64,000 nt of DNA, taken from NCBI GenBank assembly GCA_009920495.1, contig RFZW01000001.1:4191-68190 (forward strand), written 5' to 3'. Position 1 is the stretch's first letter. Every line of letters starts with the position of its first letter. The stretch comes from Chitinophagia bacterium (GTDB lineage: Bacteria > Bacteroidota > Bacteroidia > Chitinophagales > Chitinophagaceae). Under the pieces are notes generated by a model. The model saw nothing but the letters and a program-made list of their open reading frames with translations. It was not told the origin of the DNA and did no database searches. Shown piece after piece: positions 2,733-21,163 of the stretch. Position numbers and translations under genes: made by a program.

Positions 2733-2794
2733 CTGCGTGAGGAAAACACCCCCTGAATTCGGTTAAAATCGGTTGATTTCCGTTTTGTATAAAC
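2733..2794 (+). repeat. att-like repeat copy 1 (left arm only, truncated)
   Basis: CTGCGTGAGGAAAACACCCCCTGAATTCGGTTAAAATCGGTTGATTTCCGTTTTGT closely matches the left arms starting at 3723 and 12489. Confidence 0.85.
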
Positions 2795-2905
2795 CTAATT
2801 TGCCCCCTTTTATTTTTCTTATAACTGTTTAATATTCAGTCATTTAATGGTTAATTCAACGAAAAAGTAGGCGTTCTTTAATTTAATTGTAAATTTGCTT
2901 TTACA

Positions 2906-3220
2906 ATGAATAAGATACAATACAATACAAAACAAGACCTAATGAGCGCTATCTCTGAAAACAGAGACGTGATTAAATCATTTGGGGTAAATGGTTTGGG
3001 TATTTTTGGATCCTTTTCAAAAGGAACTGCTGTTGAAACAAGTGATGTTGATTTATTAGTTGATTTTATTCCAGAAAAAAAGAGCTTTGATAACTTTATG
3101 GATTTGTCATTCTTTTTGGAAGGCTTGTTTGGCAGAAAGGTTGAACTAGTTACTCGACAATCATTAAGTAAACATATTGGCCCACATATTTTAAATGAGG
3201 TAATTAATGTCAGCCTCTAA
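2906..3220 (+). CDS. MNT minimal nucleotidyltransferase (MntA-type antitoxin)
   Basis: GIFGSFSKG...SDVDLLVDF (GS-x10-DxD); 104 aa; overlaps the HEPN gene. Confidence 0.9.
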   Translation: MNKIQYNTKQDLMSAISENRDVIKSFGVNGLGIFGSFSKGTAVETSDVDLLVDFIPEKKSFDNFMDLSFFLEGLFGRKVELVTRQSLSKHIGPHILNEVINVSL

Positions 3221-3536
3221 TCTTGAGTTGGTTCGTCATATTTTGACTGAAACAGCTTTTATTATCCAACATACTGATAAAAAATCTAAAGAGCAAGTTA
3301 TTGAAGATGAAGTGCTTTGTCGCGCTGTTGTTAGAAGCATTGAAATTATTGGGGAAGCATCAAAAAAAATTGATGAGGAATTTAAAGCCTCACATATTCA
3401 TATTGAATGGAAGAAAATGGCTGGTGCAAGGGATAAGTTAATTCATGATTACTTCGGAATAGATTATGATATAGTATGGGACATCATTCAAAATAAAATC
3501 CCAGATTTGGATCATTTTTTAAACGAGTTATTATAA
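3207..3536 (+). CDS. HEPN/DUF86 ribonuclease toxin (HepT-type)
   Basis: EIIGEA and RDKLIHDY (Rx4HxY) motifs. Confidence 0.9.
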   Translation: MSASNLELVRHILTETAFIIQHTDKKSKEQVIEDEVLCRAVVRSIEIIGEASKKIDEEFKASHIHIEWKKMAGARDKLIHDYFGIDYDIVWDIIQNKIPDLDHFLNELL

Positions 3537-3556
3537 CTGGTTTGTAGTAATTAAAT

Positions 3557-3703
3557 TTACTTTCTTTGCCTCTTCTTCTTGATGGATTTACCCTTCAACC
3601 ATTGTACTTGTTTCCTTGCTTCCTCTATGGTAACTGGAGGCTGTTTCGATAAGATGATGCTGCACATCTTAGCTCTTTCTTTAAATGATATATTGAAATA
3701 CAT
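3557..3703 (-). CDS. Small basic hypothetical protein (48 aa, below the ORF-track cutoff)
   Basis: Hand translation ATG..TAA: MYFNISFKERAKMCSIILSKQPPVTIEEARKQVQWLKGKSIKKKRQRK; convergent with HEPN. Confidence 0.45.
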   Translation of the reverse strand: MYFNISFKERAKMCSIILSKQPPVTIEEARKQVQWLKGKSIKKKRQRK

Positions 3704-3826
3704 CTTATAAAATTAATGTTTTCTGCGTGAGGAAAACACCCCCTGAATTCGACTGAAATCGGTTGTTTTTGGTTTTGTAAAAACATAACACATTACAAAT
3801 CAACGCTTTCATTTTCTCAAAAAATC

Positions 3827-3870
3827 TTCATAACCCTGAGGTCCCGGGTTCAAATCCCGGTCTCGCTACA
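3827..3870 (+). pseudogene. 3' half of elongator tRNA-Met(CAT) (att core fragment)
   Basis: TTCATAA anticodon loop, CCCTG, AGGTC, T-arm CCGGG-TTCAAAT-CCCGG, acceptor 3' strand TCTCGCT-A; no D-arm or 5' acceptor strand upstream. Confidence 0.88.
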
Positions 3871-3912
3871 AAGCCTTTCAACTGAACGCGAAGCGTTTAG
3901 TTGAAAGGCTTT
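3870..3912 (+). terminator. Long hairpin after the tRNA fragment
   Basis: AAAGCCTTTCAACTGAACGC-GAA-GCGTTTAGTTGAAAGGCTTT, 20-bp stem with one G-U pair. Confidence 0.65.
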
Positions 3913-4006
3913 GGGTAAGGCAAACTGTTTGGGAAGACAATGCGCAGATTGGCCATCCCGTTAAATCGTGGGTCCTTTGTTGTTTCTGCGTGAGGTTTTT
4001 GAATAG

Positions 4007-4216
4007 TTACTTCCCGTTCCACGCGTCTATTATTCCTGCTTTAATATCAGTATAACTTGTCATAAGCCAAATTACTAAAACAATAAATAAAATAGTTTTG
4101 CAATGGGTTTTTACCAAAGTTTTTAGGTCATTGAGGAATTGATTCATATCTGTGATTTTAAGTGTTAAATTAAATTCATAGGGTTTGGTATCAGGTTTTT
4201 TAACAAATTCAGACAA
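4007..4216 (-). CDS. Small hypothetical membrane protein
   Basis: One hydrophobic segment (ILFIVLVIWLM); last gene of the minus-strand operon; the start may be the internal Met. Confidence 0.55.
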   Translation of the reverse strand: MSEFVKKPDTKPYEFNLTLKITDMNQFLNDLKTLVKTHCKTILFIVLVIWLMTSYTDIKAGIIDAWNGK

Positions 4217-4218
4217 AT

Positions 4219-5178
4219 CTAATTTCCATCAAATCTAAGAAGTACAATATTATCTAGAATTAAGTTAGATGACCATATAAATTGTGCGCCGCTAAATTGT
4301 GAACTAAAGTTGGTAAAAGAAACTTTGGGTCCTACTTGCGTTGATGTAAAAATATTTGCCGAAGGCCATGCATTAAAATCGTAAGCTGCTGCATACCAGT
4401 CACTAGGAATTGCCCAATGTAATGCGTAAGAAGCATTTGCGGAAGTTGGATAAGTATTACAGCCACTTGAATTACGAATGGCGCCAGTTTCCGTAACACA
4501 ATTTACATTACTCAATGGGGCTATATAAAATGTTTGTGCTTTCCAATTTGAATTTGTAACTGTACCATCGCTAAATTTGGCTATAAATCCCCCGTCACCT
4601 GGGTAAAATGAATTTCCCCCATTAAGTTCACTGCCAATACCTAAATTTTCTTCCCAGTCAATAAGTTTAATTGCATATTTAATTGGTCGCTTTGCTTTAA
4701 ATTTAACAAAGCTTGAATTAAATGGTGTATATGGAATAGGATCAACACCTACTAATTTACCATTCACATAAAGTTCGAAATAATTATCGCCATATAAAAA
4801 ACCACTAATGATTTCTCCATCGTTATCAATAATAATGACTGGGGCTTTTGCTGTATCTGCTAAATTAATTGATGCAGGTGTTTTTCCAACACACTCATTA
4901 TACAAATCAAATAATTTTATACCTGTTGCAAAGCTATTTTCACCCGGTAGTATCCATGTTTTATTGTCTTTTGAAATTATACTACCCATATTTGTAACTC
5001 TACCTCCACTACAGCTATAAATGGAACTATTTGAAATGGCACCTGTTCCTTGCGTGATTGAGCCTGTTCCTGTATAAGTGGCAGGCTGAGTGATAATGTT
5101 ATTATCATTTTGTACAGTATTTTTTGTACAGCCTATTATTAAAATATTGATAATAAAGATTATTGATTTATTGTTCAT
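4219..5178 (-). CDS. Hypothetical lipoprotein, beta-sandwich/lectin-like
   Basis: Lipobox IIGC; DNYFELYVNG and GDGGFIAKF motifs; Cys pairs. Confidence 0.7.
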   Translation of the reverse strand: MNNKSIIFIINILIIGCTKNTVQNDNNIITQPATYTGTGSITQGTGAISNSSIYSCSGGRVTNMGSIISKDNKTWILPGENSFATGIKLFDLYNECVGKTPASINLADTAKAPVIIIDNDGEIISGFLYGDNYFELYVNGKLVGVDPIPYTPFNSSFVKFKAKRPIKYAIKLIDWEENLGIGSELNGGNSFYPGDGGFIAKFSDGTVTNSNWKAQTFYIAPLSNVNCVTETGAIRNSSGCNTYPTSANASYALHWAIPSDWYAAAYDFNAWPSANIFTSTQVGPKVSFTNFSSQFSGAQFIWSSNLILDNIVLLRFDGN

Positions 5179-5179
5179 A

Positions 5180-5389
5180 CTATTTTACTCTTGGTTTGTA
5201 TCTATATGTATTTAAATTTTTGCCAAGTCTCAAATTTGGTTTAGAAGAATAAAATAATGGGCGGTTATAATTATTTCGATAATTATTGTAACGATTATAA
5301 ACGACTACACTTTTCCGGGGATATCTGTATTCTGGATAGCAGCCTGAAATTATTAATGTAGTGATTAAAAAAAATAGAAATAATTTCAT
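5180..5389 (-). CDS. Small hypothetical lipoprotein
   Basis: Signal peptide ending ISGC; tightly packed in the operon. Confidence 0.55.
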   Translation of the reverse strand: MKLFLFFLITTLIISGCYPEYRYPRKSVVVYNRYNNYRNNYNRPLFYSSKPNLRLGKNLNTYRYKPRVK

Positions 5390-5406
5390 AAAGTTATATT
5401 TTAATA

Positions 5407-6825
5407 TTAACGTTGATAGTTTGTTGTAGTAACAATTCCTCCTGTATCAGTTAATGTATAAGTATATTTATTATTAATATCCCAACTGTATTTTACGAAA
5501 CCTGTTTTAGCTCCAATTTTATAAGTTAATAAATAGCCATTGGATCCTACAGCAGCAAAATCGAAAATGACAGCCCCTTTTAATGGGCTTGTTGCAGGTC
5601 GAACAGGTTTGGTAAAAGCTTGTGGCAATATTTGATTCTCGGGTGCTGGTGTTGATGGGTCTAAATTTACTTTTCCTTTCATGGCACCTACTACATATGG
5701 ATAATCACTGGTACCATGATAATGATAGATATTGTTACTTCCAACATGACCATGACATGAATCCAAGGCAATCATTGTACTACCATCTGGCTCTTTGCTT
5801 CCATAAACCGGGAATCCATCTAATGCAAAAGCAATAGGTTTTAATCCAGAAGTAGTTGATAAGTGAAGTGGTGCTGCATGATAGTGGTAGTCATCACCAC
5901 GTCCACAATGCCCACCCCAATTATCTAATTCACCAATTAAATAGGAATCCTCTCCGCGATTGTTCAGTGCATTAAAAATTGGAATACCATTTACTGCAAC
6001 AGCCACTGCGCCCTTCATTAAATTCGTTTTGGTACTTAATGGGGTAGTTGCATAAGCGGGTTGTAATGGGATAGACCAACTGTTGTTATCGGTATAAGGT
6101 TGCGAAATGGGGACTTGTTGTTGCCAACTGGTAATTCCAATCATCATATTATGACTGGGTATGCCAGTTGATCCAATATAAAAGTATGTATCATCCCATT
6201 TGGTAGTAATACTTGGCTTGTAAGGGGTGAAAGCGGAATCTATAAAACCAGTACTCGTTTTTGGAAGCGTAGCAATTGTGTTGTTATTATTTGTGTTCCC
6301 ATTGGTAATGTTGGTTGTAGCTGATTTGCTACATGCAATAGCAACCGTAGTAATGACTAACAATGAAATGCCAAGGAGGTTTAAGTTATTTTTTAAAACA
6401 TATTTATTAAACAAAATTGGTTTAAATATCTTGAATAGTGTAAGTGGTGTTAGTATAATTAATAGATATTGTAAAATTGTTATTAATATAGTTGAAGTAG
6501 AGTTGCCAGAATTTGTAATGTCAAAGTTGTAATTTATTTGGTTTAATTTATTAATCTTAAATTTTGCTAATTTTTGATCTTGTATACTTAAATCTTGGAT
6601 AGGAACAGCTAATAATTTTCCATCTTCTTTTTCTAAATAAATTACATCGCCTTTATTCATCAAAAAATTACCTTTTAATGAGTTGCCGTTTTTCAATTGC
6701 CATGTATTGTATATAGTTCCGTCTCCATGATGATAATGACCACCACTGTGTGCAAACGTTGATAGCGGTTTAGTAATTAATAGTAAAATCATGCATGTAA
6801 AAAACGCCAATAGCTTCTTTTTCAT
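5407..6825 (-). CDS. YHYH domain protein with His-rich N-terminus and SHD1-like domain
   Basis: GVAVNG-like AVAVNGIPIF, GGHCGRGDDYHYH, ALDGFPVYG, LDSCHGH, YHYHG; HSGGHYHH after the signal peptide; two internal TM segments. Confidence 0.88.
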   Translation of the reverse strand: MKKKLLAFFTCMILLLITKPLSTFAHSGGHYHHGDGTIYNTWQLKNGNSLKGNFLMNKGDVIYLEKEDGKLLAVPIQDLSIQDQKLAKFKINKLNQINYNFDITNSGNSTSTILITILQYLLIILTPLTLFKIFKPILFNKYVLKNNLNLLGISLLVITTVAIACSKSATTNITNGNTNNNNTIATLPKTSTGFIDSAFTPYKPSITTKWDDTYFYIGSTGIPSHNMMIGITSWQQQVPISQPYTDNNSWSIPLQPAYATTPLSTKTNLMKGAVAVAVNGIPIFNALNNRGEDSYLIGELDNWGGHCGRGDDYHYHAAPLHLSTTSGLKPIAFALDGFPVYGSKEPDGSTMIALDSCHGHVGSNNIYHYHGTSDYPYVVGAMKGKVNLDPSTPAPENQILPQAFTKPVRPATSPLKGAVIFDFAAVGSNGYLLTYKIGAKTGFVKYSWDINNKYTYTLTDTGGIVTTTNYQR

Positions 6826-6834
6826 ATTTGTAAT

Positions 6835-7413
6835 TTATCTGGTATAAGTGACAGTCATAACAGTACTGTCTAAAATTTTATTTCTAATGCCTGCAAGTAA
6901 TATATCCATAGTAACCTGCGAACTACTCACTGAAATGGTTGGTGCTGCACTTAATGCGTATAAAGTTAAAATATAAACCTTAGCCCCAGGACCTTGAGAA
7001 CAAGGAGGGGTGTATGTATTTTTTCTATCCACTGTGTTTATACCAAAGCTTCCAATACTTTTTGAGTTGTCAGATAAGGAAGTAACCGTATTGGGAATAT
7101 TATACAAAACAATGTATACATGTTTATCTTCAGTAGGGTAAGATGGAGGAAAATGATGCATGGTAATTGCATAAGAATTAGTCCCTGATGGTGCATTTGA
7201 CCACTGCAAACCTGGCGAAAAACCACTACTATCACAGGTATAAACTTTTGGATAAATGCCATTATTGGCAAATCCGTTCCCAGTAAATACGAGCTGTTTA
7301 GCAATAGTAGTTGGCAATGGAGTGGTGGAGTTAGTGTTACTATTTGTACTCGTGCTTTTGGAGCAGCTTAAAAAACTAACAAAAACAAAAAATGTTATTA
7401 AAATTGATTTCAT
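6835..7413 (-). CDS. YbhB/YbcL (PEBP/Raf kinase inhibitor-like) lipoprotein
   Basis: YTCD, SPGLQWSNAP, YTPPCSQGPG, YILTLYALS; lipobox FLSC. Confidence 0.85.
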   Translation of the reverse strand: MKSILITFFVFVSFLSCSKSTSTNSNTNSTTPLPTTIAKQLVFTGNGFANNGIYPKVYTCDSSGFSPGLQWSNAPSGTNSYAITMHHFPPSYPTEDKHVYIVLYNIPNTVTSLSDNSKSIGSFGINTVDRKNTYTPPCSQGPGAKVYILTLYALSAAPTISVSSSQVTMDILLAGIRNKILDSTVMTVTYTR

Positions 7414-7526
7414 AGGGGCATCAATATTGATATTTGGACAGATTTAAATAATTAAAGTTTAATTTTTATTAAACTTTATTTCTCTTCTTAAGTCTAATTT
7501 AACAAAGTTGTAAACGTTGAATCCAT

Positions 7527-9167
7527 ATGGTAAAAAATGTATTTTGTTTTTTAATGGTTTTATGCTTTTCCACAATTGTCAAAGGTCAAAATTATACCAT
7601 CATTCTAGGAAGACCTACTGATAAATCTGTGACTATAAGCATACTTTTTGATCTAAATGTTGATTATTACATTGAATATGGGACTAATTCCGGAGTTTAT
7701 GGAAAAACCACTACAAATTTTGTTGCGAAAGCAAATGTTCCTGATGAGATTGACCTTACAGGATTAAATGCTAATACGAAGTATTATTATAGGGTACAAT
7801 ATAAATCAAATTCAGTATCAAATTTTAAGGTTTCTTCTGAATATTACTTTAACACTCAACGTTCCATAAATACTGTGTTCACTTTCACTGTTGAATCAGA
7901 TGAGCATTTATATGATAAAAAGGGGATTAGAAGTATGTATCAGATAAGTTTGAACAATCAAGCCTTAGACAAACCTGATTTTATGCTTTCATTGGGAGAT
8001 ATTTTTGGGGATGATCACAATCCATTTACAATTACCTCTGCTGAATTAGATGTTTTACACAAGGACTATCGACAATATTTAGGGTCAATTTGTCATTCCA
8101 TTCCTTTTTATATTTCCTTGGGAAATCATGAAGGGGAAAATGATTTTTTTTTAGGTCAAACACCCCCCAACAATTTAGCAATATGGGGAACCCAGTGGCG
8201 CAAGTATTATTACCCTAATCCTTATCCAAATTCATTTTATTCTGGAAATGATGATGTTGAACCTTATGGCGTTGCTAATCCTGAAAACTATTATGCTTGG
8301 ACGTGGGGGGATGCATTATTTGTGGTTTTGGATGTATACCGAAATCAAAATCCAAATTCAGATAAACCACAAGGTTGGGATTGGTCATTAGGTGCGAAAC
8401 AATATAATTGGTTAAAAACAACCCTTGAAAAAAGTACATCTAAATATAAATTTGTTTTTGCTCATCATAATAGAGGTCAAGGACGAGGTGGTATTATTCC
8501 AGCAAAATTATTTGAATGGGGTGGTTATGAGCAAGATGGTAAAACATGGGGTTTTGATAAAAATAGGCCAGGATGGAGCAAACCTATTCATCAATTATTT
8601 AAAGATAATGGGGTAAATATCTTTTTTCAGGGACATGATCATTTGTTTGCACATGAAATGATGGATGGAGTTCATTATCAGGAAGTTCCTATGCCAAGTG
8701 ATTCAACTTATATGATCGGGAAACTTGCAAATGCAGATGCTTTCGTTTCAGACACTTTGGATGGCACAGGTCATATACGTGTTAGTGTTTCATCTTCCTG
8801 TGTAAAAGTTGATTATGTAAAAGCATACTTACCCAAGGATACTTTGGATGGTAAACATAAAAATAGAGAAATTGGCTTTAGTTATACAATTGGCAGTTGT
8901 ATAGTTACAGGCATAAATGACTTACCAAGTGCATCAAATAGTGAGTTTGTAGAAGTTTTTCCTAATCCTGCAAAAAATAAATTATTCCTTCGTTTTATAA
9001 ATAATATCAACAGTTTTGAAGCTAAGTTAATAAATATTAACGGAGATATTTTATTAATATCTAATAACAAAGAAATAGATGTTTCAGGATGGCAGCCAGG
9101 AATATATTTTTTAAATATACAGGCAGGCAATCAAGCTGCAAGAAAAAAAATTATAATAAGCAATTAA
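7527..9167 (+). CDS. Secreted metallophosphoesterase with FN3/PAP N-domain and T9SS C-terminal domain (paralog 1)
   Basis: SDEH, LGD, GNHE, GHDH; C-terminal VFPNPA...GIYFL T9SS sorting domain. Confidence 0.88.
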   Translation: MVKNVFCFLMVLCFSTIVKGQNYTIILGRPTDKSVTISILFDLNVDYYIEYGTNSGVYGKTTTNFVAKANVPDEIDLTGLNANTKYYYRVQYKSNSVSNFKVSSEYYFNTQRSINTVFTFTVESDEHLYDKKGIRSMYQISLNNQALDKPDFMLSLGDIFGDDHNPFTITSAELDVLHKDYRQYLGSICHSIPFYISLGNHEGENDFFLGQTPPNNLAIWGTQWRKYYYPNPYPNSFYSGNDDVEPYGVANPENYYAWTWGDALFVVLDVYRNQNPNSDKPQGWDWSLGAKQYNWLKTTLEKSTSKYKFVFAHHNRGQGRGGIIPAKLFEWGGYEQDGKTWGFDKNRPGWSKPIHQLFKDNGVNIFFQGHDHLFAHEMMDGVHYQEVPMPSDSTYMIGKLANADAFVSDTLDGTGHIRVSVSSSCVKVDYVKAYLPKDTLDGKHKNREIGFSYTIGSCIVTGINDLPSASNSEFVEVFPNPAKNKLFLRFINNINSFEAKLININGDILLISNNKEIDVSGWQPGIYFLNIQAGNQAARKKIIISN

Positions 9168-9174
9168 TTGTAAC

Positions 9175-10788
9175 ATGAAAAAATATATTATTATCATTTT
9201 GATTAATACATTCTTATTCACCGAAGTTAGTTCGCAAAACTATACTGAGGTTTTAGGGAGACCAACTGATTCCACCATTACCCTTAGTATTTTATTTGAT
9301 CAAAGTGTAAATGTGTATTGGGAGTATGGAACATCTCCCGGTAATTATTCTATAATTACACCAGTATATAAAACAATCGCAGATACACCATTAGAAGTAG
9401 ATTTTATTAATTTATTACCAGATACTAAATATTATTATCGAACAAAATATTTAGCAAATAAATCTTCCGGAAATTACATTTCTGGAGCGGAACACTTTTT
9501 TCAAACGCAACGAAAATCAACTACAACATTTTCATTTGTTGTTGAAGCAGATCCACATTTAGATAGTAATACTAATCCAGATGCTTATAAGTTAACCTTA
9601 CAACACATGCTTTCAAAAAAACCCGATTTTATAATTGATCTAGGTGATAATGCAATGAGTGATAAATTACCTGTAATTGATAAAACGTCTATTGTGGATC
9701 GAACCTTATTATTTAGACAATACTTTAATGAGCTTACACATTCTGTTCCATTATATGTAACACTGGGCAATCATGAAGGGGAATTAGGATGGCTTCCAAA
9801 TACAGGTTTAACAAGCTTGCCAACTATGGCTGCTTTAATTAGAAAAACGTATTTTCCCAATCCTTATCCAAATAAATTTTATTCGGGAAATACTATTCCA
9901 GAGGCCAATGTAGGAATTCGAGAAAATTATTATGCTTGGGAATGGGGTAATGCTTTATTTATTGTACTAGATCCATACATGTATACTAAATCAAAACCAG
10001 AATGGGGTTGGACCTTAGGTTTACAACAGTATAATTGGCTAAAAAATACCCTTGCTAATAGTAAAGCAAAATTTAAATTTTTATTTAGTCATCAATTGGT
10101 TGGAGGCTCAGGAACGGAGGGACGCGGCGGAACTGAATTTGCTCATTTATATGAAATGGGCGGTAGAAATACGGATTCTACCTATGGATTTTCAAACAAC
10201 AGACCAGGTTGGGATAAACCTATTCATTACTTAATGTTTGAAAATAAAGCCAGTGTTTATTTTCATGGCCATGATCACTTATTTGCCAAACAAGATAAAG
10301 ATGGCATTGTATATCAAGAAGTCCCTCAACCATCAGCGAAAAATATTACCACTATAACAGGAGCTCCTTATGGTTATGTAAATGGAACCTTATTACCCAA
10401 TAGAGGTTACATGTATGTCACTGTTAGTGCCGATAAGGCACAAGTGGATTATATCAGAACCTATTTGCCAAGTGAAGAAAATGCTACTAGGAAAAACGGA
10501 GATATATCATATACTTATACCATACAACCATCCCCCATTACGGGGATCAATGAAGTTATAAGTAATGATTTTGTTAAAATATTTCCCAATCCAGCAAATA
10601 ATAAAATTAGTATTCAATATAAAGAAAATAATAATTATCAAATTAAAATATTGAATATAATGGGAGAGTCTGTATTGGTTACAAAAACAAAAGAAATTGA
10701 TACAAGTAGATTACCCAATGGCATCTACTTTTTAAATTTCGAAACAGATAAATTTATATCAAGTAAAAAAATTATAATTCAACATTGA
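9175..10788 (+). CDS. Secreted metallophosphoesterase with T9SS C-terminal domain (paralog 2)
   Basis: ADPH, LGD, GNHE, GHDH; IFPNPA...GIYFL C-terminal domain. Confidence 0.88.
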   Translation: MKKYIIIILINTFLFTEVSSQNYTEVLGRPTDSTITLSILFDQSVNVYWEYGTSPGNYSIITPVYKTIADTPLEVDFINLLPDTKYYYRTKYLANKSSGNYISGAEHFFQTQRKSTTTFSFVVEADPHLDSNTNPDAYKLTLQHMLSKKPDFIIDLGDNAMSDKLPVIDKTSIVDRTLLFRQYFNELTHSVPLYVTLGNHEGELGWLPNTGLTSLPTMAALIRKTYFPNPYPNKFYSGNTIPEANVGIRENYYAWEWGNALFIVLDPYMYTKSKPEWGWTLGLQQYNWLKNTLANSKAKFKFLFSHQLVGGSGTEGRGGTEFAHLYEMGGRNTDSTYGFSNNRPGWDKPIHYLMFENKASVYFHGHDHLFAKQDKDGIVYQEVPQPSAKNITTITGAPYGYVNGTLLPNRGYMYVTVSADKAQVDYIRTYLPSEENATRKNGDISYTYTIQPSPITGINEVISNDFVKIFPNPANNKISIQYKENNNYQIKILNIMGESVLVTKTKEIDTSRLPNGIYFLNFETDKFISSKKIIIQH

Positions 10789-10902
10789 GTTATTTATAAA
10801 AATTATAAAGTAAATCAAATTTCTACAATGTTGGTTTAATTATTAATCAATTATCTAATAATATACTATGATTTCAGAAACCAATTATTAAAATAATTTA
10901 TT

Positions 10903-12636: not shown

Positions 12637-12668
12637 AAGCCTCTCAACGCAAGTTGAGAGGCTTTTTT
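12637..12668 (+). terminator. Rho-independent terminator after the tRNA fragment
   Basis: AAGCCTCTCAAC-GCAA-GTTGAGAGGCTT followed by a T-tract. Confidence 0.75.
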
Positions 12669-13037: not shown

Positions 13038-14501
13038 TTATTCAGGAATCATCCACCAAAATGGCAAACCTTTTGCTTTGTATAAGAACATATAATGCAT
13101 TAACCACTTTAACCAATGTCCTGCCAATCCTGGTTCGCCCATGGTGGTTTTAATATCTCTTCCCCACTGAGGAAATTTTTCCCAATCGGGTACTACAGGG
13201 CTCACAGTCATGGTAGCCGCAGTTCCTTTTCGCATGCCATATCCAGCTGATACAATACAAGCTGCACCCATACGTCCCATTGATGCCTTGTGAATCATTG
13301 TGGCATTGCCAGTTTTTATCCAGTTTATGATATTGTCTGCTGTTACCTTGCCCATAATTCCTGAAGGCATACCAGTTCTTGGGGCTGATGCAAAAATGGG
13401 TGTACCATTTTTACTTGTCATGGGTTTAGAAATAGAGTGGGGAGGTGCAAATGCAATACCGGGTGCAAAGATGTTAGGATAACTTGGATTTTGATAAGTT
13501 TCAGGCCAATCTTTAATAGTCCATTGTTCAAATGGTTTTGGGGTATAGTCTGCATCTACTTTCATAAGTCCACTTAGTGCAAATAATTTATCTGAAATGT
13601 CTTTACCTGTTTTATCATAGGCTTTAAATCCATGTCCTGCAAAACCTGGTATGAGCATCGCGAAATCATAGGGCTGTTCTAAATATTCCCCATCTAAATT
13701 TTCGTAATAAATTGTATGATCGTCTAATTTTTTCACACCTGCTCTTTTAATCCAGGTAATGTTTCTTTCAACAAAATATGATTCTGCAAACAACTTAGTA
13801 TTTGAAATAAATCCACCTTTTGGAATAAAGGCGCCACCCATTCCAAAGTCACCTAATTCATATTCATTCGTAATCCAAATTACTTGGGCTTGCTTTTCTA
13901 ATCCTCTTCTTTTAATTTCAAAATCAACATTTAAAATATACTCAAAGGCGGCACCTTGGCAGGTTGCAGTGGGATAGCCTGTTCCAATGACAAAAATTTG
14001 TTTTTCGCCATTTTTCATTTTGTCCAATTTTTCTTGAAATAGTTCCCATGCATGACTGGCATGACCAAAAGTACATACCGATGCAATATTCCCATTTCCA
14101 GGAACTAGACCTTCTGTTGCTTCAAAGTTTAATTTTGGTCCCGTAGCATTAATTAAATAATCGTAAGCTACTTTTATTTTTTCACCTTTATTTTCTTCGT
14201 TGGTATATTCTACTTCAACAAATCCTGTATTCATATGCTCATCACCTTCAGGGTAAAAACTTTGCGCCTTCGCTTGAATAAATTCAATCCCCCATTTTTT
14301 ATACAATGGTCTTAAATCAAATTTAATTTCTTCAGGGGTCATTCTACCAACACCCACCCAAATATTGGATGGAATCCATTGATAGTTTGGAGTAGGAGAG
14401 ATCACTTTTATCTTATGCTCGTTTTTATTGAGTCCTTTTTGAAGGTATGCCGCAGCCGTATGACCAGCAACGCCTGCGCCTAATACAACAATATTTGCCA
14501 T
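13038..14501 (-). CDS. sqr: Sulfide:quinone oxidoreductase family flavoprotein
   Basis: GAGVAG Rossmann motif, WIPSNIWVGVG, SVCT, TCQGAAFEY, PRTGMPSG, amphipathic C-terminus; sulfur-transfer gene neighbours. Confidence 0.8.
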   Translation of the reverse strand: MANIVVLGAGVAGHTAAAYLQKGLNKNEHKIKVISPTPNYQWIPSNIWVGVGRMTPEEIKFDLRPLYKKWGIEFIQAKAQSFYPEGDEHMNTGFVEVEYTNEENKGEKIKVAYDYLINATGPKLNFEATEGLVPGNGNIASVCTFGHASHAWELFQEKLDKMKNGEKQIFVIGTGYPTATCQGAAFEYILNVDFEIKRRGLEKQAQVIWITNEYELGDFGMGGAFIPKGGFISNTKLFAESYFVERNITWIKRAGVKKLDDHTIYYENLDGEYLEQPYDFAMLIPGFAGHGFKAYDKTGKDISDKLFALSGLMKVDADYTPKPFEQWTIKDWPETYQNPSYPNIFAPGIAFAPPHSISKPMTSKNGTPIFASAPRTGMPSGIMGKVTADNIINWIKTGNATMIHKASMGRMGAACIVSAGYGMRKGTAATMTVSPVVPDWEKFPQWGRDIKTTMGEPGLAGHWLKWLMHYMFLYKAKGLPFWWMIPE

Positions 14502-14545
14502 GTTATCTTGTTTCAGTAAATGTACTTACTGCCTTTGCCAATAGT

Positions 14546-14561
14546 AGTGATATATATCACA
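14546..14561. promoter_or_regulatory. CRP/FNR-type palindrome
   Basis: AGTGA-TATATA-TCACA in the sqr / CoA-disulfide reductase divergent promoter region. Confidence 0.65.
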
Positions 14562-14602
14562 ATTGATAATTTAAAATCCAATTAATATCATAACTAGTGT
14601 AG

Positions 14603-14618
14603 CGTGATTTATGTCACA
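14603..14618. promoter_or_regulatory. CRP/FNR-type palindrome
   Basis: CGTGA-TTTATG-TCACA, 46 bp upstream of the 14665 start. Confidence 0.65.
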
Positions 14619-14664
14619 ATTAAGATTTTATTATTGATTGAACTTTGTGGTCTAAAATATTAAA

Positions 14665-16329
14665 ATGAAATACATAATAGTTGGCGCAGTGGCAGGTGGA
14701 GCAAGCACTGCAGCAAGGTTAAGACGCTTGGATGAGCATGCTGAAATCGTACTATTTGAAAAGGGCGAGTATATTTCTTATGCCAATTGTGGTTTGCCCT
14801 ATTATATTGGAAATGTAATTACAGATAGAAATAAATTATTTGTACAAACTGCGGCCTCTTTTAATCAAAGATTTAAGATTGATGTTCGAATTCAAACCGA
14901 GGTATTAGAAGTGAATGCTGCAACTAAAATCATTAATGCAAGAAATCAGAAAACAGGAGAACTTTACAGTGAAACTTATGATAAATTGGTTTTGTCTCCT
15001 GGTGCTGAACCTATGAGGCCGCCTTTATCTGGAATAATGAGTGAAGGGATATTCACATTAAGAAATGTGAATGATACGGATTACATTAAGTCCTATGTTA
15101 GTAATAGAGCAATTAAAAAAGCAGTGGTGATTGGTGCTGGTTTTATTGGATTAGAAATGGCCGAAAATTTGCAAGAATTAGGAATGGAAGTGAGTATCAT
15201 CGAAATGGGTAATCAAATATTAGCGCCATTAGATTTTCCTATTGCAGCCATTGTTCAACAGCATATCCGCAGTAAAGGAGTAGATCTAAGTTTAAATACA
15301 GCAGTTACAGGATTTGAGAAAGTAGGTAACCAATTAAAAGTCAATTTAAAATCTGGGGAATCCATAGATGCGGATGTTGTGATATTATCTATTGGAGTAA
15401 AGCCAGATACAAAATTAGCAGTAGGGGCAGGTCTTAAAATAGGAGAAACTAGAGGTATATGGGTAAATGAATTCTTACAAACCTCTAACCCTGATATATA
15501 TGCAGTTGGTGATGCGATTGAATTCACTAACCCAATTACGAATCAAGCCTTAATTACTTATTTAGCAGGTCCTGCCAATAAACAAGGTCGCATTTGTGCT
15601 AATAATATAGTGCTAGGAAATGTACAAAGCTATCATGGTTCAATTAATACAGCTATTGTAAAAGTGTTTGATATGACCATTGCTACTGCTGGAACAGCGG
15701 CTAAACATTTAACCACTGCCCATATCGAGCATAAGGTTTCCACAACACATAATGGATCTCATGCTAGTTATTATCCTGGTTCAAAACAAATGAGTATCCA
15801 AATTGCATTTTCGATAAAAACAGGTCAGTTATTGAGTGCTCAAATTGCAGGTTATGATGGAGTAGATAAAAGGATAGACATTTTATCGTCTATTATTAAA
15901 AGAAAAGGCACCATTGATGAAATGGTTGAATTTGAACATGCTTATGCACCTCCTTATTCTTCAGCAAAAGACCCTGTAAATATGGCTGGTTTTGTAGCTG
16001 AAAATATTATATTAGATAGGCTCCGTATTTTTTATTGGAATGAGCTACCTACTATAAGCCCTGACGATTTATTAATTGATGTAAGAACTGCAGCTGAATT
16101 TGAAAATGGAAAAATACCCAATGCAATCAATATTCCTATTGATGAGATTAGAGATAGATTAGGAGAGATTTCAAAAAATAAAAGAATTTATATTTATTGC
16201 GAGGCAGGACTTAGAGGGTACTTAGCACAACGAATACTTTTACAGAATGGCTATGAGCAAGTACAAAACCTATCGGGTGGGTATCAATTATGGAAGGCCG
16301 CAAGTACTGAGTTAGCTTTAGTTTCTTAA
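14665..16329 (+). CDS. CoA-disulfide/persulfide reductase with C-terminal rhodanese domain (CoADR-RHD/Npsr-like)
   Basis: GAVAGG, SYANCGLPY, GAGFIG, YAPPYS, rhodanese IDVR...YCEAGLRG. Confidence 0.9.
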   Translation: MKYIIVGAVAGGASTAARLRRLDEHAEIVLFEKGEYISYANCGLPYYIGNVITDRNKLFVQTAASFNQRFKIDVRIQTEVLEVNAATKIINARNQKTGELYSETYDKLVLSPGAEPMRPPLSGIMSEGIFTLRNVNDTDYIKSYVSNRAIKKAVVIGAGFIGLEMAENLQELGMEVSIIEMGNQILAPLDFPIAAIVQQHIRSKGVDLSLNTAVTGFEKVGNQLKVNLKSGESIDADVVILSIGVKPDTKLAVGAGLKIGETRGIWVNEFLQTSNPDIYAVGDAIEFTNPITNQALITYLAGPANKQGRICANNIVLGNVQSYHGSINTAIVKVFDMTIATAGTAAKHLTTAHIEHKVSTTHNGSHASYYPGSKQMSIQIAFSIKTGQLLSAQIAGYDGVDKRIDILSSIIKRKGTIDEMVEFEHAYAPPYSSAKDPVNMAGFVAENIILDRLRIFYWNELPTISPDDLLIDVRTAAEFENGKIPNAINIPIDEIRDRLGEISKNKRIYIYCEAGLRGYLAQRILLQNGYEQVQNLSGGYQLWKAASTELALVS

Positions 16330-16345
16330 ACTTAGATTAAGTAAT

Positions 16346-16380
16346 AAAAAAGGAGCCATCGTAATTATGGCTCCTTTTTT
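16346..16380. terminator. Bidirectional Rho-independent terminator
   Basis: AAAAAAGGAGCCAT-CGTAATT-ATGGCTCCTTTTTT between convergent genes. Confidence 0.85.
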
Positions 16381-16407
16381 ATTTAGCTATTTTCAACTAA
16401 AATTTTG

Positions 16408-16584
16408 CTACTTTTTTGAATTACTGTTCAAACCTAAAATAGTGTACAAAGGACAAAAACTAACAATACTCGTTAATAAAAAAACACCACCTACTACGAG
16501 TAAAACAATACCTGCTGTACCTTCTATGGTTTTAGTAATATAAAGCATTGCAAATGCAATGGCTATAATAATTCTAATTGCTTT
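16408..16584 (-). pseudogene. DUF2892 (YgaP-like) membrane protein lacking its N-terminus
   Basis: Hand translation KAIRIIIAIAFAMLYITKTIEGTAGIVLLVVGGVFLLTSIVSFCPLYTILGLNSNSKK*; FCPLY motif; no start codon, joined out of frame to the upstream gene. Confidence 0.75.
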
Positions 16585-16754
16585 GCAACTAAAAAGCCCA
16601 TTACTGCACCATACAAGGTACTGTTAATTGGCTTAGAAGTAATCATGCAGGTACCACTAGAACAACCTACAAATTTCCAATATAAGAAACCAGCTACCGC
16701 TCCAAGGGTAATACCTATTAAATCTCGTTTATACTTTTGAAAAAATAAAGTCAT
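16563..16754 (-). CDS. DUF6132 family small membrane protein (C-terminus probably altered by a deletion)
   Basis: GFLYWKFVGCSSGTCMITSKPINSTLYG motif. Confidence 0.8.
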   Translation of the reverse strand: MTLFFQKYKRDLIGITLGAVAGFLYWKFVGCSSGTCMITSKPINSTLYGAVMGFLVAKQLELL

Positions 16755-16756
16755 AG

Positions 16757-17065
16757 TTATCTAAGTTTTGATTGAAGTCCAAACCAAGAACCTCCATTAT
16801 ACACTTCGATACCTGCAGCTTTTAGTACTGATTTAGCCATACCGCTTCTAGCACCACTTTGACAAACTGTAATTACAGGTTTATTCCACTTTTTAATATT
16901 ACTTATTTCTCGTTGAACATTATTTACAGGAATATTTTTGGATCCCTTAATATTACCTCTATCAAATTCTTGAGGAGAACGAACGTCCAAAATAATAGCA
17001 CCTGCCTCTTTGAGTTCTTTAAAATCAGTTCCAGGGCCAAATAGTTTTTTGAAAAAGGGGAACAT
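16757..17065 (-). CDS. Rhodanese-like protein
   Basis: ILDVRSPQEF, VCQSGARS. Confidence 0.9.
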   Translation of the reverse strand: MFPFFKKLFGPGTDFKELKEAGAIILDVRSPQEFDRGNIKGSKNIPVNNVQREISNIKKWNKPVITVCQSGARSGMAKSVLKAAGIEVYNGGSWFGLQSKLR

Positions 17066-17066
17066 A

Positions 17067-17354
17067 TTAATTATTGTTTATGATGTTATTTAGGCTAAAA
17101 ATTCCGCCTCCATTATAAATGTCTTGTATACCATTTTGTTGCAAGATGCCAGTAGCCATTGAGCTACGGCCTCCACTTAAGCAATAGACAACAATTGGCT
17201 TTTGCATTGCAGAGATTTGCTTCATATTGGATTCAATAATATCTAAAGGGATATTGATCGCACCGGGGATGTGGTTTTCTTCAAATTCCATAGGGCTTCT
17301 AACGTCTAATAAAGTGCCCTTTTTTTCCTTAATGGATTTAATTATATTTTGCAT
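17067..17354 (-). CDS. Rhodanese-like protein
   Basis: LLDVRSPMEF, HIPGAINIP, YCLSGGRS. Confidence 0.9.
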   Translation of the reverse strand: MQNIIKSIKEKKGTLLDVRSPMEFEENHIPGAINIPLDIIESNMKQISAMQKPIVVYCLSGGRSSMATGILQQNGIQDIYNGGGIFSLNNIINNN

Positions 17355-17403
17355 TTTGATATATTTTTCTTGTACAAAAGTACATTAACCCAATACTTAA
17401 TTG

Positions 17404-17419
17404 GGTGACATATATCACA
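17404..17419. promoter_or_regulatory. CRP/FNR-type palindrome upstream of the rhodanese operon
   Basis: GGTGA-CATATA-TCACA. Confidence 0.65.
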
Positions 17420-17429
17420 CTACAATGTA

Positions 17430-17937
17430 TTATTTTTTGATCCAGTCAAAAGAGTTTCGGTTCATAATAATCCAGCCGTTATGCTCCATTTTCTTTAATA
17501 GGCGACTAATTACTTCTCTTGAGGTGTTTAAGTCATTGGCAATATCCTGATGGGTTAAATTCACAATGGCACCAAATTGTTTCACATATTTTAGAATATA
17601 AAATTCTAAACGCTCATCCATATTTTTAAATGCATATATCAGTCACCGCCTTAGCTAATACCTGGCTTTGCTCATGATGATAGTTGCATACCAAAGTGAC
17701 AGCACATGCTTCACCTGGATTTAAATGGTACATAAAATATTCACCACCGGTTTCGTCTTCCTGATAAAGTTTAATGGTTCCTTCTACCACCAACATGGCA
17801 GATTTGATATTCTGACCCATTTTTAATAAAGTAGTACCTGCTTTTACTTCTTTCAATTCTGCTTCATTGAGTATGGCATCGTATAAGCCGTCCTCCCAAT
17901 CAGGGAATAGTTTTGTAAGCTTTTCTTTTGATAACAT
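17430..17937 (-). pseudogene. Crp/Fnr family regulator split by an internal deletion/frameshift
   Basis: cNMP-binding domain ORF 17626-17937 and HTH ORF 17430-17621 (THQDIANDLNTSREVISRLL); the linker helix is missing and the frame changes near 17635. Confidence 0.85.
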
Positions 17938-17979
17938 ATAAAGTTAAATTCTACTGTGAATATACGCTATTTGAAGGAA

Positions 17980-17995
17980 TGTAATAATTGTCACA
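17980..17995. promoter_or_regulatory. CRP/FNR-type palindrome
   Basis: TGTAA-TAATTG-TCACA between the crp start and the divergent thioredoxin operon. Confidence 0.55.
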
Positions 17996-18038
17996 AACAG
18001 GCAGTTTTCATTGGTTTAATTTTGAAAAAATACTAAAA

Positions 18039-18296
18039 ATGAGAAATTTACTTTCTAAAATTGATTATACACTAACATTTAGATTACTGCTGAGTATAGC
18101 TATGTGTTATACAGGATACATACAAAATGATTACATGTCAGGTATATTTGGCTTATTCTTGGCTATATATGCAATTATAGGTGCAAAGTATAAAATTGGT
18201 TGTGGATACAACGGATGCGCTTATACGCCAACTCATAAGTCTAAAGAGATATTGGTGGAAGATGTTAAACATATTGATTTTACCGAAATAAAATAA
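18039..18296 (+). CDS. Small membrane protein (DUF2892-like, Cys pair)
   Basis: Two TM helices followed by IGCGYNGC; ATG 18039 preferred over TTG 17988. Confidence 0.65.
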   Translation: MRNLLSKIDYTLTFRLLLSIAMCYTGYIQNDYMSGIFGLFLAIYAIIGAKYKIGCGYNGCAYTPTHKSKEILVEDVKHIDFTEIK

Positions 18297-18301
18297 ATAA
18301 C

Positions 18302-18613
18302 ATGTCCAGTCCTGAAACATTTGCAACAATCATTAATGGTGATTTACCTGTCTTAGTTGATTTTTTTGCTGAGTGGTGTGGCCCCTGTAAAATGATGCCT
18401 CCCATTTTGGAACAAGTTAGAGATAAGTTAGGGGGTAATGTTCGTATTATAAAAATTGATGTAGATAAAAATCAAAAACTAGCATCAGAGTTAAATGTAT
18501 CTAGTGTACCAACGCTTGCAATTTTTTCAAAGGGAGAAATTAAATGGAGACAGCCTGGTGTTCAACAAGCCAACTCATTGGTTCAATTATTAAATAAGTA
18601 TATTGTGTCATAG
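18302..18613 (+). CDS. trxA: Thioredoxin
   Basis: DFFAEWCGPCK motif. Confidence 0.93.
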   Translation: MSSPETFATIINGDLPVLVDFFAEWCGPCKMMPPILEQVRDKLGGNVRIIKIDVDKNQKLASELNVSSVPTLAIFSKGEIKWRQPGVQQANSLVQLLNKYIVS

Positions 18614-18668
18614 TTGGTGTATGATATAATTTATTTTATATACCATAGAATCGAAATAATAAATAATT

Positions 18669-19265
18669 ATGAATTCATTTTGGAACGATAGATACAGTGA
18701 AACCGAATTTGTGTATGGAATAGCACCTAATATATATTTTGCTGAGGAATTAGGTAAATTAAAACCAGGTACTATTATTTTACCTTGTGATGGAGAAGGC
18801 CGTAATGCGGTACATGCAGCAAGACAAGGATGAAATGTACAAGCATTTGATTTAAGTGAAGCTGGAAAAGTAAAGGCCGATGGTTTGGCTTTAAAGTATG
18901 ATGTAAAAATTAGTTTTCAGCTACAAGATGCTGCCCTGGCTGTGTATCCAGCAGCAAGCGCAGATGCTGTTGCTATTATTTATACGCATTTGCCTACACC
19001 CATAAGAAAGGAATTATACAAGAATATAATCCAATGGTTAAAATCTGGCGGGAAAGTTATTTTAGAAACATTTTGTCCTGATCAATTAAAAAATAATTCT
19101 GGAGGTCCAAAGGACATTGATATGCTTAATACCAAGGAAATTCTTTCAGAAGATTTCAAAGATTTAAGCATTGATTATTTGGAGTATGTGCAAATTCAAT
19201 TGAGTGAAGGTAAGTATCATGAAGGTCAAGCAGATGTGATAAGAATGATCGCAACGAAGCTATAA
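18669..19265 (+). pseudogene. Class I SAM-dependent methyltransferase with an in-frame TGA at 18831
   Basis: MNSFWNDRY...LPCDGEGRNAVHAARQG*NVQAFD continues in frame into ORF 18885-19265. Confidence 0.85.
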
Positions 19266-19279
19266 TTATTACCTATCCT

Positions 19280-19392
19280 TGTGTGAGGAAAACACCCCAT
19301 CAAATCGGTCCAAATCGGTTGTTTTCGGTTTTGTGAAAACATAACCCATTACAAATCAACGCCATCCCGTTAAATCGTGGGTCCTTTGTTGC
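19280..19392 (+). repeat. att-like repeat copy 4 (both arms, core deleted)
   Basis: TGTGTGAGGAAAACACCCC...ACAAATCAACGC joined directly to CATCCCGTTAAATCGTGGGTCCTTTGTTG. Confidence 0.85.
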
Positions 19393-19393
19393 T

Positions 19394-19933
19394 TTAATGC
19401 AGTTTAGGTTTTGTTAGAACTTTTTTTAATTTAATTATTATTCCTATTAGGATTATCAGATAAGTAATACTTGATAATATAAATTTAAAAGAGTTGGTTA
19501 CAGATCCTATCGAAACTAATGTTTCTGATATTGGACCTGAATTTAAATAGGTTTTTAGCATAACTAATTCAACGTAATTCTCTGCCCAATCGGCAATCAT
19601 ACATAAAATAGGAATAATCAATAATAGACGCCTGTTATTAAAAAAGTACATAATCCAAGATGCGTACATCAAAGTATAAACAAATGCAAAAATTGCGTCC
19701 CAAATTTGAAGAAATTCTCTATAACATAGAAGCTGCTCCTGAGTCCTTGATTCAAAGAATTTTCGAACCATTTCTAAAGAGTAAGAGAAAGAAAGACCTA
19801 ATGAACTTGCTCCTGTATCAATTTTGAAGCAACTACCAAATGGAGCTAAAATGTATGTGATATACAAGGAAAAAACTAAAGTAAAACCTATAGCTAAATA
19901 TAGAGCTCGATTATTCTTGAAATATTTAATCAT
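19394..19933 (-). CDS. Hypothetical integral membrane protein
   Basis: Four TM segments, ADWAEN motif; 179 aa. Confidence 0.7.
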   Translation of the reverse strand: MIKYFKNNRALYLAIGFTLVFSLYITYILAPFGSCFKIDTGASSLGLSFSYSLEMVRKFFESRTQEQLLCYREFLQIWDAIFAFVYTLMYASWIMYFFNNRRLLLIIPILCMIADWAENYVELVMLKTYLNSGPISETLVSIGSVTNSFKFILSSITYLIILIGIIIKLKKVLTKPKLH

Positions 19934-19951
19934 TTTGATGATTTTTTATTA

Positions 19952-20524
19952 CTAGTTGGTTTTATCAAATACGGTCTTCCAGGAGCGCTCGCCTTCCCAT
20001 ATATTTGATTTTGCAATGGATTGAATAGTAATTGACTTGCCGTCATTACTCAACTTCCAAACCTCTGTAACGTTAGTATATGCTTGTTCCTGAACATTTG
20101 GATTGTAAGGAGTGCCATTCATAAAGTATACAATTGATTGAATTGTCATAGTTTCTCCATCAGCAGATAACTTTAAAGTAAACTTCTTTCTGTTTCCCTG
20201 GCCATGATTAATTTGACTTTCTTTACCATTGATGATCAGCTTCTCCCAGCTTAAAGTTGATGTTGCGCCTGTATCCGAGTTTGGATTTTCTATAGTTAGA
20301 AAATCTGCATCCTCCGCTATTTTCATTGTTTTTGAATTCATACGATCACCTTCTAGATAGGAGCAAAAAATATTTCCGCCTATACTTATCGGCTCTTTGG
20401 TTTTCCATTCACCAGAAAATTTAGTTCGATGAATGACATTTTTTTGTTGTGCTTCAACAGTAAAATAGAATACTACTGTTAACAAAATAATCATGCAGGA
20501 TAAAATGTATCTTTTATTTTTCAT
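19952..20524 (-). CDS. Hypothetical secreted protein (lipocalin-like beta barrel)
   Basis: Signal peptide; FSGEW; repeated LSxDG hairpins. Confidence 0.65.
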   Translation of the reverse strand: MKNKRYILSCMIILLTVVFYFTVEAQQKNVIHRTKFSGEWKTKEPISIGGNIFCSYLEGDRMNSKTMKIAEDADFLTIENPNSDTGATSTLSWEKLIINGKESQINHGQGNRKKFTLKLSADGETMTIQSIVYFMNGTPYNPNVQEQAYTNVTEVWKLSNDGKSITIQSIAKSNIWEGERSWKTVFDKTN

Positions 20525-20602
20525 AAGTTTTTTATTAATCCTTTATGGGTTGTCTAAAGATATAACATCGCCTTTAATTACAACCTATCATAAACCTTTT
20601 GG

Positions 20603-20653
20603 TGCCGAAAATACCCACTTATATCGAAGAAAACCGGTCGATTTCGGTTTTGT
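20603..20653 (+). repeat. att-like repeat copy 5 (degenerate left arm)
   Basis: GAAAATACCCAC...AAACCGGTCGATTTCGGTTTTGT aligns with left-arm GAAAACGCCCCC...AAATCGGTTGATTTCGGTTTTGT. Confidence 0.6.
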
Positions 20654-20986
20654 TCAATAACTGAATGTCCAACTTCCCTCTTCCATCTCCGCTTCCAATT
20701 CTCCCACATCCCATCCGCAATAGCCAATAAAAAGTTGAATTTCTTGTTTATTGGCACTCTTAGTGTTGATTGCTTCGATCACTTGGTCCATATTACCACC
20801 CAAATAAAAACCATTGGGTATTTTTTCGCCCCCCTCAATTAGATCGGGTCGCTTGTGCAATACAAAGAGGTGGTCTCTATCAACTGGGCCGCCATCCATC
20901 AGTGGAAATGGTTTAACGTGTTTGAATTCAATTAGTTCATGCAATGACTTTTCAAAGGATTTATTGGTTACAAACCCTAAACTTCC
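20654..20986 (-). pseudogene. YqgE/AlgH family protein, 5'-truncated
   Basis: GSLGFVTNK, GGPV, LFIGYCGWDVGELEAEMEEGSW; no recognisable family N-terminus upstream of GSLGF. Confidence 0.75.
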
Positions 20987-21099
20987 TAGTTGATATGTCG
21001 TTAATGATTGTGGGCACCTAATACGAAAATTATTAAGCTGTAAATCGCCAGCCTAAAGTAGACAAAAAAGTGGAGTTTTCTTAAAATCATATACTAACT

Positions 21100-21120
21100 T
21101 TAAATCCTGGGTCCTTTGTT
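21100..21120 (+). repeat. att-like repeat copy 6 (right-arm remnant)
   Basis: TTAAATCCTGGGTCCTTTGTT, 20/21 identical to 3961-3981. Confidence 0.7.
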
Positions 21121-21163
21121 ATTTTTTCTTCATTCTGTGCCTAAATTCGCTTAACTATTCAAT

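Follow-up and report, generated by a model that had tools for sequence, protein, structure and literature searches.

Integrase-less gene modules between attP-like junctions: a probable tRNA-Met accretion array in freshwater Chitinophagaceae

We describe an array of small gene modules in a 64,000-nt stretch of DNA (hereafter the window), positions 4,191 to 68,190 of contig RFZW01000001.1, from the Chitinophagia bacterium assembly GCA_009920495.1 (family Chitinophagaceae). The modules are separated by copies of one repeat. With a probability of roughly 0.7, we take these repeats to be attachment junctions of an array that grows at a tRNA-Met gene, and the modules to be integrase-less derivatives of a parent element, likely excised and re-inserted as circles by the parent's integrase. 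A first-pass annotation, made from the sequence of the window only, had proposed an integron-like accretion array of this kind, stacked by a recombinase acting in trans. G labels below denote genomes of the genus (G000 is the present one), C labels its contigs, L labels fetched regions and X labels runs.

The layout of the junction resembles that of lambda attP, where sites for arm binding, Xis and IHF surround a 7-bp overlap. The left arm is 101 nt long; it starts with a 9-mer motif and also has an IHF-like site and three short repeats in 10-11-bp phase. After it comes the 3' half of a tRNA-Met gene, beginning at the first base of the anticodon loop, and in relatives the intact tRNA-Met and the junctions are homologous only from that base onward. 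The right arm has an IHF-type consensus at 137 of 165 starts, a terminator-like hairpin (about -16 kcal/mol) and as many as three direct repeats of the left-arm 9-mer, which is thereby repeated on both sides of the core. Of 157 left arms, 132-147 preserve the arm, phased-repeat and IHF-like motifs, with variable spacers between them. The tRNA halves carry compensatory T-stem variants that are also present in intact tRNAs. The roles of the putative arm, IHF-like and core sites are read from sequence.

Six copies of the repeat lie on the + strand of the window, each where the first-pass annotation had put it. Copies 2 (3723-3998) and 3 (12489-12850) are full junctions, mutually 89% identical across 161 nt, and their tRNA piece starts, as had been claimed, exactly at the 7-nt anticodon loop (3827 and 12593). 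Copy 2 comprises a P-arm-like left arm (3723-3823, with arm motif at 3724-3732, phased short repeats and a putative IHF-like site at 3798), the core and tRNA-Met 3' half (3827-3870; anticodon loop 3827-3833), a separate hairpin insert in place of the first stretch of the right arm (3871-3958), and the rest of that arm (3959-3998), which retains the 3' half of the terminator hairpin and one arm motif (3987-3995). Copy 3 consists of left arm 12489-12589, core and tRNA half 12593-12636, insert 12637-12810 and right arm 12811-12850, whose arm motif is mutated. The earlier description of these two copies needs a correction, in that their right arms miss the IHF-like site and half of the terminator, the hairpin insert sitting there instead. 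Copy 1 (2733-2800; arm motif 2734-2742) is a truncated left arm only, copy 4 (19280-19396) a left arm joined directly to a right arm with the core deleted, copy 5 (20602-20661) a degenerate left arm beside a YqgE/AlgH (DUF179) gene, and copy 6 (21083-21127) a degenerate right arm. The junctions match no Rfam family above the gathering score.

The hairpin insert is present in 18 of 150 junctions of the tRNA-plus-right-arm type. Besides the window inserts at 3871-3958 and 12637-12810, kin hairpin-rich repeats occur at tRNA 3' ends behind other tRNA fragments of this genome (C61:1-230 and C46:1-200), and in L019 and L018:7563-7805. The repeat is tandemly amplified in G015 and flanked by a tRNA-end duplication in G020. 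In G012 a GIY-YIG nuclease gene stands at its position; the repeat is possibly a non-autonomous partner of a GIY-YIG element.

The assembly of this genome is 78% complete in 348 contigs, and the arm profiles match only three of them: C1 (the window), C298 (four more junctions) and C135; the repeat is therefore clustered. The search of genome and relatives that the first-pass annotation recommended thus located the arms at one locus with tRNA cores. Eight relatives (G011, G015, G012, G209, G148, G230, G263 and G147) have an intact tRNA-Met and, behind it, 2-11 junctions that point the same way and occupy 4-42 kb, and 630 of 632 arm and tRNA elements share one orientation. An intact tRNA-Met at the head of arrays, and arms that carry tRNA cores, are what the proposed accretion array predicts. 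A dispersed repeat resembling miniature inverted-repeat transposable elements or repetitive extragenic palindromes, or mis-assembly across a repeat, might mimic such an array; contigs of metagenome-assembled genomes (MAGs) do often break at the repeat, and the hairpin insert of copies 2 and 3 is a repeat of that sort. This explanation is largely refuted, and we consider it very improbable, given the co-orientation, the three matching contigs, the 1.5-Mb contig of G011 with 8 junctions at most 23 kb from the tRNA, and an integrase that abuts the arm.

That cognate enzyme is a lambda-like tyrosine integrase of 422 aa. A 423-aa open reading frame (ORF) beside the right arm in G019 gives only a weak PF00589 match, below the Pfam cut-off; searched with it, 33 of 280 genus genomes have matches at E <= 1e-20. 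Near-full-length copies, at least 64% identical, are found in 15 of the 280. In 11 of these 15 the integrase stop codon falls just beyond the last arm motif, behind an intact tRNA-Met and right arm; in G084 it is a full junction that the gene follows, G019 and G110 have one or two genes in between, and in G087 the integrase gene is cut by the contig end. The integrase-bearing elements of G050 and G087 are flanked by the same arms. The first-pass annotation had placed the recombinase in trans. A linked tyrosine integrase does exist, and since it often heads the same array, as it probably does here, 'in trans' may mean no farther than a neighbouring element.

The integrase has catalytic residues of the R-K-NxxR-H-Y type. 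Its structural model, built on a 52-sequence alignment that reaches only about 40% identity, has a mean predicted local distance difference test score (pLDDT) of 78 and comprises an N-terminal domain of three strands and a helix (residues 15-75), a core-binding domain and a catalytic domain. Full-length lambda Int provides the model's top structural matches (E 9e-10), and the N-terminal domain is predicted to bind the arms. A single-sequence AlphaFold model (pLDDT 34) was unusable, and the best hit in a PDB sequence search had an E of only 0.25. The three variants of the arm motif require 3 changes, the fewest possible, on the tree of the N-terminal domain and 5 on that of the catalytic domain, a comparison of 11 cognate rows that are related to each other and modestly supported; it is suggestive of an arm motif that follows the N-terminal domain.

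Other recombinases were considered. Host XerC/D came into question when G000, G012 and G015 yielded just two PF00589 matches each, and was rejected with the finding of the divergent integrase, below the Pfam cut-off, at the arm. Among PF13102-type Bacteroidota integrases, 39 loci and the second-locus region of G011 are without arms. The large serine recombinase next to the array of G150 belongs to a tRNA-Glu element whose end is not shared with the arm. In L036 (9427-11040) the C-terminus of a large serine recombinase reads through the antisense strand of tRNA-Glu, and the element holds a block of three genes that resembles one of the tRNA-Met parent element, which suggests integrase swapping. 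Sister integrases of about 40% identity (L103-L113 and L116) lie behind a tRNA-fMet 5' half that ends at the anticodon loop, with another arm motif; L104 and L107 have junctions of arm, tRNA 5' half and arm, and there may be a mirror-image array at tRNA-fMet.

Parent elements also carry a 126-aa xis-like gene (so labelled from its position, with no family match), phage-type replication-initiator or primase genes (PHROG) and defence-rich cargo. Between replication genes and cargo stands a second tyrosine recombinase of 189-207 aa with a catalytic domain only (L139:4201-4770, L141:3976-4545, L146:3658-4281), a candidate for cargo exchange or dimer resolution. Families of capsid, terminase, relaxase or type IV secretion system (T4SS) proteins were not found with Pfam among 57 + 16 proteins, nearly all from parent elements, several of which are cut by contig ends. 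In G230 two contigs (L096 and L037) bear tRNA-Met, one continuing into an integrase element and the other into integrase-less modules, which suggests two alleles in one population.

The modules derive from such parents. Of 136 right-arm junctions, 12 run into a full integrase gene. Among the 124 others, 25 run into 24-122 nt of the integrase 3' end, with 15 different endpoints, one holds a long integrase fragment, and four have matches too short to count. Because so many keep this C-terminal stub, we regard modules as deletion derivatives of a tycheposon-like parent. A stub after window copy 3 is only faintly visible and was not detected by BLAST. The survey of segments covered 109 regions from 70 genomes, picked by arm or integrase matches. 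Its 209 inter-junction segments include a full integrase in 2 and a fragment in 5, and the window ORFs from 38 to 31509 hold no recombinase by Pfam, in agreement with the first description of the modules as integrase-free. In 136 segments a tRNA half or right arm stands at one end and a left arm at the other; these strict modules have a median length of 1,909 bp (340-23,097).

Modules recur in new company. Sixty segments fall into 24 clusters whose members come from different genomes and are 77-99.8% identical, and neighbours differ in 42 of 43 comparisons among shared modules; the order of modules between genomes, whose comparison had been recommended, is variable. Arms dispersed through the genome, a fixed order, or a lack of tRNA-Met and integrase, any of which would have spoken against the array, are not what we found. 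G011 holds one copper module twice, 99.4% identical and non-adjacent, one copy beside the tRNA. In G084 a 607-bp integrase-less module, also present in 3 other genomes, stands between the tRNA and an integrase-bearing element. One might suppose, as for classical cis-mobilizable elements (CIMEs), that every module degenerated where it stands from a complete element of its own and can move only in cis, within a composite that includes an intact neighbour. The many stub endpoints and the parents at array heads suit this, as does the three-step accretion model in the available passages of PMC5704250, and a composite circle re-entering through an inner junction could also give the G084 order. It sits poorly with modules that keep the same boundaries beside different neighbours in up to 4 genomes, and with eight arrays that pass through 2-11 junctions behind the tRNA and show no cognate integrase within the fetched stretch. 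We think it improbable.

On the reading that we prefer, of junctions in a growing array served by a parent's integrase, events would run as follows. The parent (int, xis-like gene, phage-type replication gene, second small tyrosine recombinase and cargo) would integrate by crossover in the anticodon loop, and deletions would strip int, xis and rep and leave both arms. Int and Xis of a neighbouring or visiting parent would recombine two junctions into a small circle, which could enter at the tRNA, displacing older modules outward, or at an internal junction. Exchange between junction copies of about 200 bp would scramble left arms too. Between cells, modules would most plausibly pass by natural transformation or as passengers of phage or vesicle particles; ComEC is encoded in all five genomes tested, which indicates only that uptake is possible. 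Excision and the transfer of single modules are what we infer. Across 41 junctions in 7 arrays, completeness drops with rank from the tRNA (rho -0.43, p 0.005), and the expectation that older junctions decay is upheld.

Several observations weigh against this reading. Under pure core crossover each module should keep its own left arm, and the prediction failed (0.85 against a background of 0.83, p 0.16). Five pairs with flanks about 99-100% identical differ at 3-12 of 101 arm positions, so a second process must act. Some neighbours travel together: one pair has an upstream flank in common at 97%, and beyond 19395 the window and G222 are collinear. Clustering at 70% coverage can count partly shared neighbours as different. 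The window's own junctions, without the right-arm IHF-like site and most right-arm motifs, may be inactive. Neither an excised circle nor an empty site was seen in the data, which are assembled contigs only. Nearly all genomes are MAGs, in which joins across repeats can be wrong, and, the regions having been picked by arm or integrase matches, the figure of 11 of 26 should not be read as a population frequency. Where run contigs join junction copies, the joints have short sides and are repeat-derived, and were not counted as excision; nor were coverage gaps (the sulfide module in X19, of which 62% was read, and much of C298 in X7) taken as evidence.

The left arms themselves are mosaic. There are 156 distinct haplotypes among 157 copies, with variable blocks in nearly all combinations and an r2 of about 0.01 beyond 10 nt, and arms within a genome are no more alike than arms of different genomes. 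The tRNA half, right arm and adjoining bases do track the downstream module (p 1e-4), partly trivially, since adjoining cargo bases are included. Such mosaicism might arise by patchy exchange between paired junctions, through RecA or through branch migration from integrase-made Holliday junctions; assembly chimeras may be another source. The left arm of copy 3 with its cargo is reproduced exactly in an independent run.

The same mosaicism is an argument for modules being dead remnants of parents, gained, lost and reshuffled only by RecA-type homologous recombination at near-identical junctions, for example after transformation. ComEC fits this too, as does the near-full cognate integrase found in only 9 of 82 arm-bearing genomes. 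Yet a crossover of this type favours the longest identical block, the tRNA half with the right arm, and would give a linkage of left arm and cargo that is not seen either. The motifs kept in most left arms despite their variable spacers are as expected if a protein still reads them, and the gradient of decay from proximal to distal fits entry at the tRNA. On balance we find RecA acting by itself unlikely.

The left arm is matched in 82 of 280 genus genomes (44 of the 174 of high quality) and in none of 300 other genomes drawn from the order. Among the best 80 of 143 records with the exact right-arm motif, most are labelled as Sediminibacterium, Chitinophagaceae or Bacteroidetes MAGs, with a few other labels. 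Viral contigs searched gave no arm match and no integrase relative. A wider proposal, which we offer tentatively, is of a genus-wide, integron-like system of attP sites, in which single integrase-less modules would circulate between freshwater Chitinophagaceae species by the borrowed integrase of a transient tycheposon-like helper, entering at the tRNA or at internal junctions, while recombination between junctions scrambles the arms.

In this genome the head of the array is in an assembly gap, since contig C29 carries prs-rplY-pth-FAH hydrolase and stops inside the FAH hydrolase gene, which in relatives stands just ahead of the elongator tRNA-Met. By ARAGORN the window itself has no whole tRNA, and the assembly holds no near-full-length cognate integrase. 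The first 4.2 kb of C298 are 96% identical to the G087 parent and stop 40 nt before the xis-like gene; the array therefore probably has its own, unassembled integrase. The part of the array in the window, terminating at the DUF179 gene that marks the distal end of many arrays, is the old end.

Cargo in the window changes at the repeat copies, as the first-pass annotation had noted, and Pfam assignments agree (copper, MNT-HepT, YHYH/PEBP/phosphoesterase, sulfide, hypotheticals). Left of copy 1, genes for a multicopper oxidase, MORN and SCO1 proteins (38-2702, + strand) form a block 91% identical in G110. Between copies 1 and 2 lies a type VII toxin-antitoxin-like pair of MNT nucleotidyltransferase and HepT RNase (2906-3536, + strand), with 91-97% identical copies in 4 other genomes. 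The next module (4007-12396) encodes a YHYH protein, PEBP and three metallophosphoesterases, two with a type IX secretion tail; near-identical DNA occurs in runs that, where labelled, are freshwater, lake, river or plankton. The sulfide module (13038-19265), with SQR-like and CoA-disulfide-reductase/rhodanese proteins, rhodaneses, Crp and thioredoxin, is 94-96% identical in G230 and G020 and has different neighbours in G230. Two hypothetical genes (19394-20524, - strand) common to several relatives follow. Contigs of independent runs bridge copy 1, the toxin-antitoxin pair and the left arm of copy 2, and likewise the YHYH cargo with the left arm and core of copy 3. Of the contigs listed, none covers a junction completely with cargo at both ends, and for the order across copies 2 and 3 we therefore depend on the present assembly.

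Contigs from other runs hold about 78, 125 and 102 extra bases at window positions 16585, 17634 and 20987, and the split Crp gene and truncated DUF179 gene of the window are probably assembly gaps or strain deletions. At 14684-14852, antisense to the CoA-disulfide-reductase-like ORF, there is an Rfam V_AS7 match of 64 bits (cut-off 90), likely a similarity of coding sequence.

Array modules hold multi-gene operons in either orientation. A clade II nosZ/nosD cluster lies between junctions in G015 (L015:8322-12621) and a C-P lyase operon in G167 (L038:8166-18672). Cargo across arrays includes clade II nitrous-oxide reductase with NosD, the C-P lyase phosphonate operon, ACR3 arsenite efflux, CusA/CzcA metal efflux, copper oxidases, TonB receptors and toxin-antitoxin pairs. 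Because nitrous-oxide, phosphonate, arsenite and metal genes are among this cargo, N2O, phosphorus and metal traits may be exchanged between species as plug-in modules, a concrete mechanism by which a small-genome freshwater lineage could draw on a shared gene pool. With enzyme and sites specified, the mobility of integrase-less cassettes, long assumed in models of additive islands, is open to direct assay. With the arm profiles as a tag, cargo can be mined from metagenomes; as a tool for work in Bacteroidota, the integrase is a candidate.

How does the array compare with known systems? In integrons, built on IntI, attI and attC, recombinase-free modules are shuffled by an enzyme encoded elsewhere. 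The first-pass likening to integrons stands insofar as this array works like one of cassettes, and falls insofar as it has no IntI or attC-type site. Recombinase-free modules bounded by recombination sites are also known from the dif modules of Acinetobacter, in the passages available from PMC6449649 and PMC13141974. Both differ from the present sites, which are directly oriented, lambda-type and attP-like with half a tRNA, and are served by the integrase of a mobile element instead of IntI or XerCD. That integrase is, on the evidence of its model, akin to heterobivalent enzymes of the lambda type, with a three-stranded N-terminal domain and lambda Int as top structural match.

The comparison with CIMEs and tycheposons made at the outset agrees with the structure of the modules and the layout of the parent. 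CIMEs of the ICESt1 type have lost genes of integration and transfer, keep attL and attR, and are stacked by successive integration at a target gene, according to the passages available from PMC5704250. The present modules are likewise without their own integrase and keep attL and attR of a related autonomous element; they differ in numbering up to 11 junctions per array, in their median size of 1.9 kb, in long arms that are near intact and in their reordering across many species. Conjugation of the type used by integrative and conjugative elements finds no counterpart among the parent proteins scanned, which include no relaxase or T4SS family. The ssrA-specific islands of Dehalococcoides stand in tandem behind one RNA gene, 15 of 31 without an integration module, and share cargo at high identity; in the same passages of PMC3146451 they use serine recombinases and a 20-bp direct repeat and have no within-strain duplicates, whereas the array described here has a tyrosine integrase, attP-like junctions of about 200 bp with arm sites and a within-array duplicate.

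Tycheposons of Prochlorococcus, in the parts available of bioRxiv 10.1101/2020.12.28.424599, have parents with a tyrosine integrase, xis-like and replication genes, a second small recombinase and cargo at a tRNA gene. Parent gene content, tRNA integration, older material pushed into the island and small host genomes are all shared, a likeness of gene content and layout. In those parts tycheposon remnants are without clear boundaries, whereas here they are sharply bounded by full arms, and integrase-less remnants appear to be the main circulating unit. The additive flexible islands of Alteromonas have tRNA hotspots, cassettes variable in number and order, partial tRNA repeats and near-identity between species; an integrase and arm anatomy, as identified here, are absent from the passages available on PMC4898812. 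We found no description of this junction family in a literature search that left most subscription journals outside. The array is of a known kind, that of CIMEs and additive islands; what sets it apart is the number of modules, their small size, the intact long arms, the reshuffling across species and an identified integrase.

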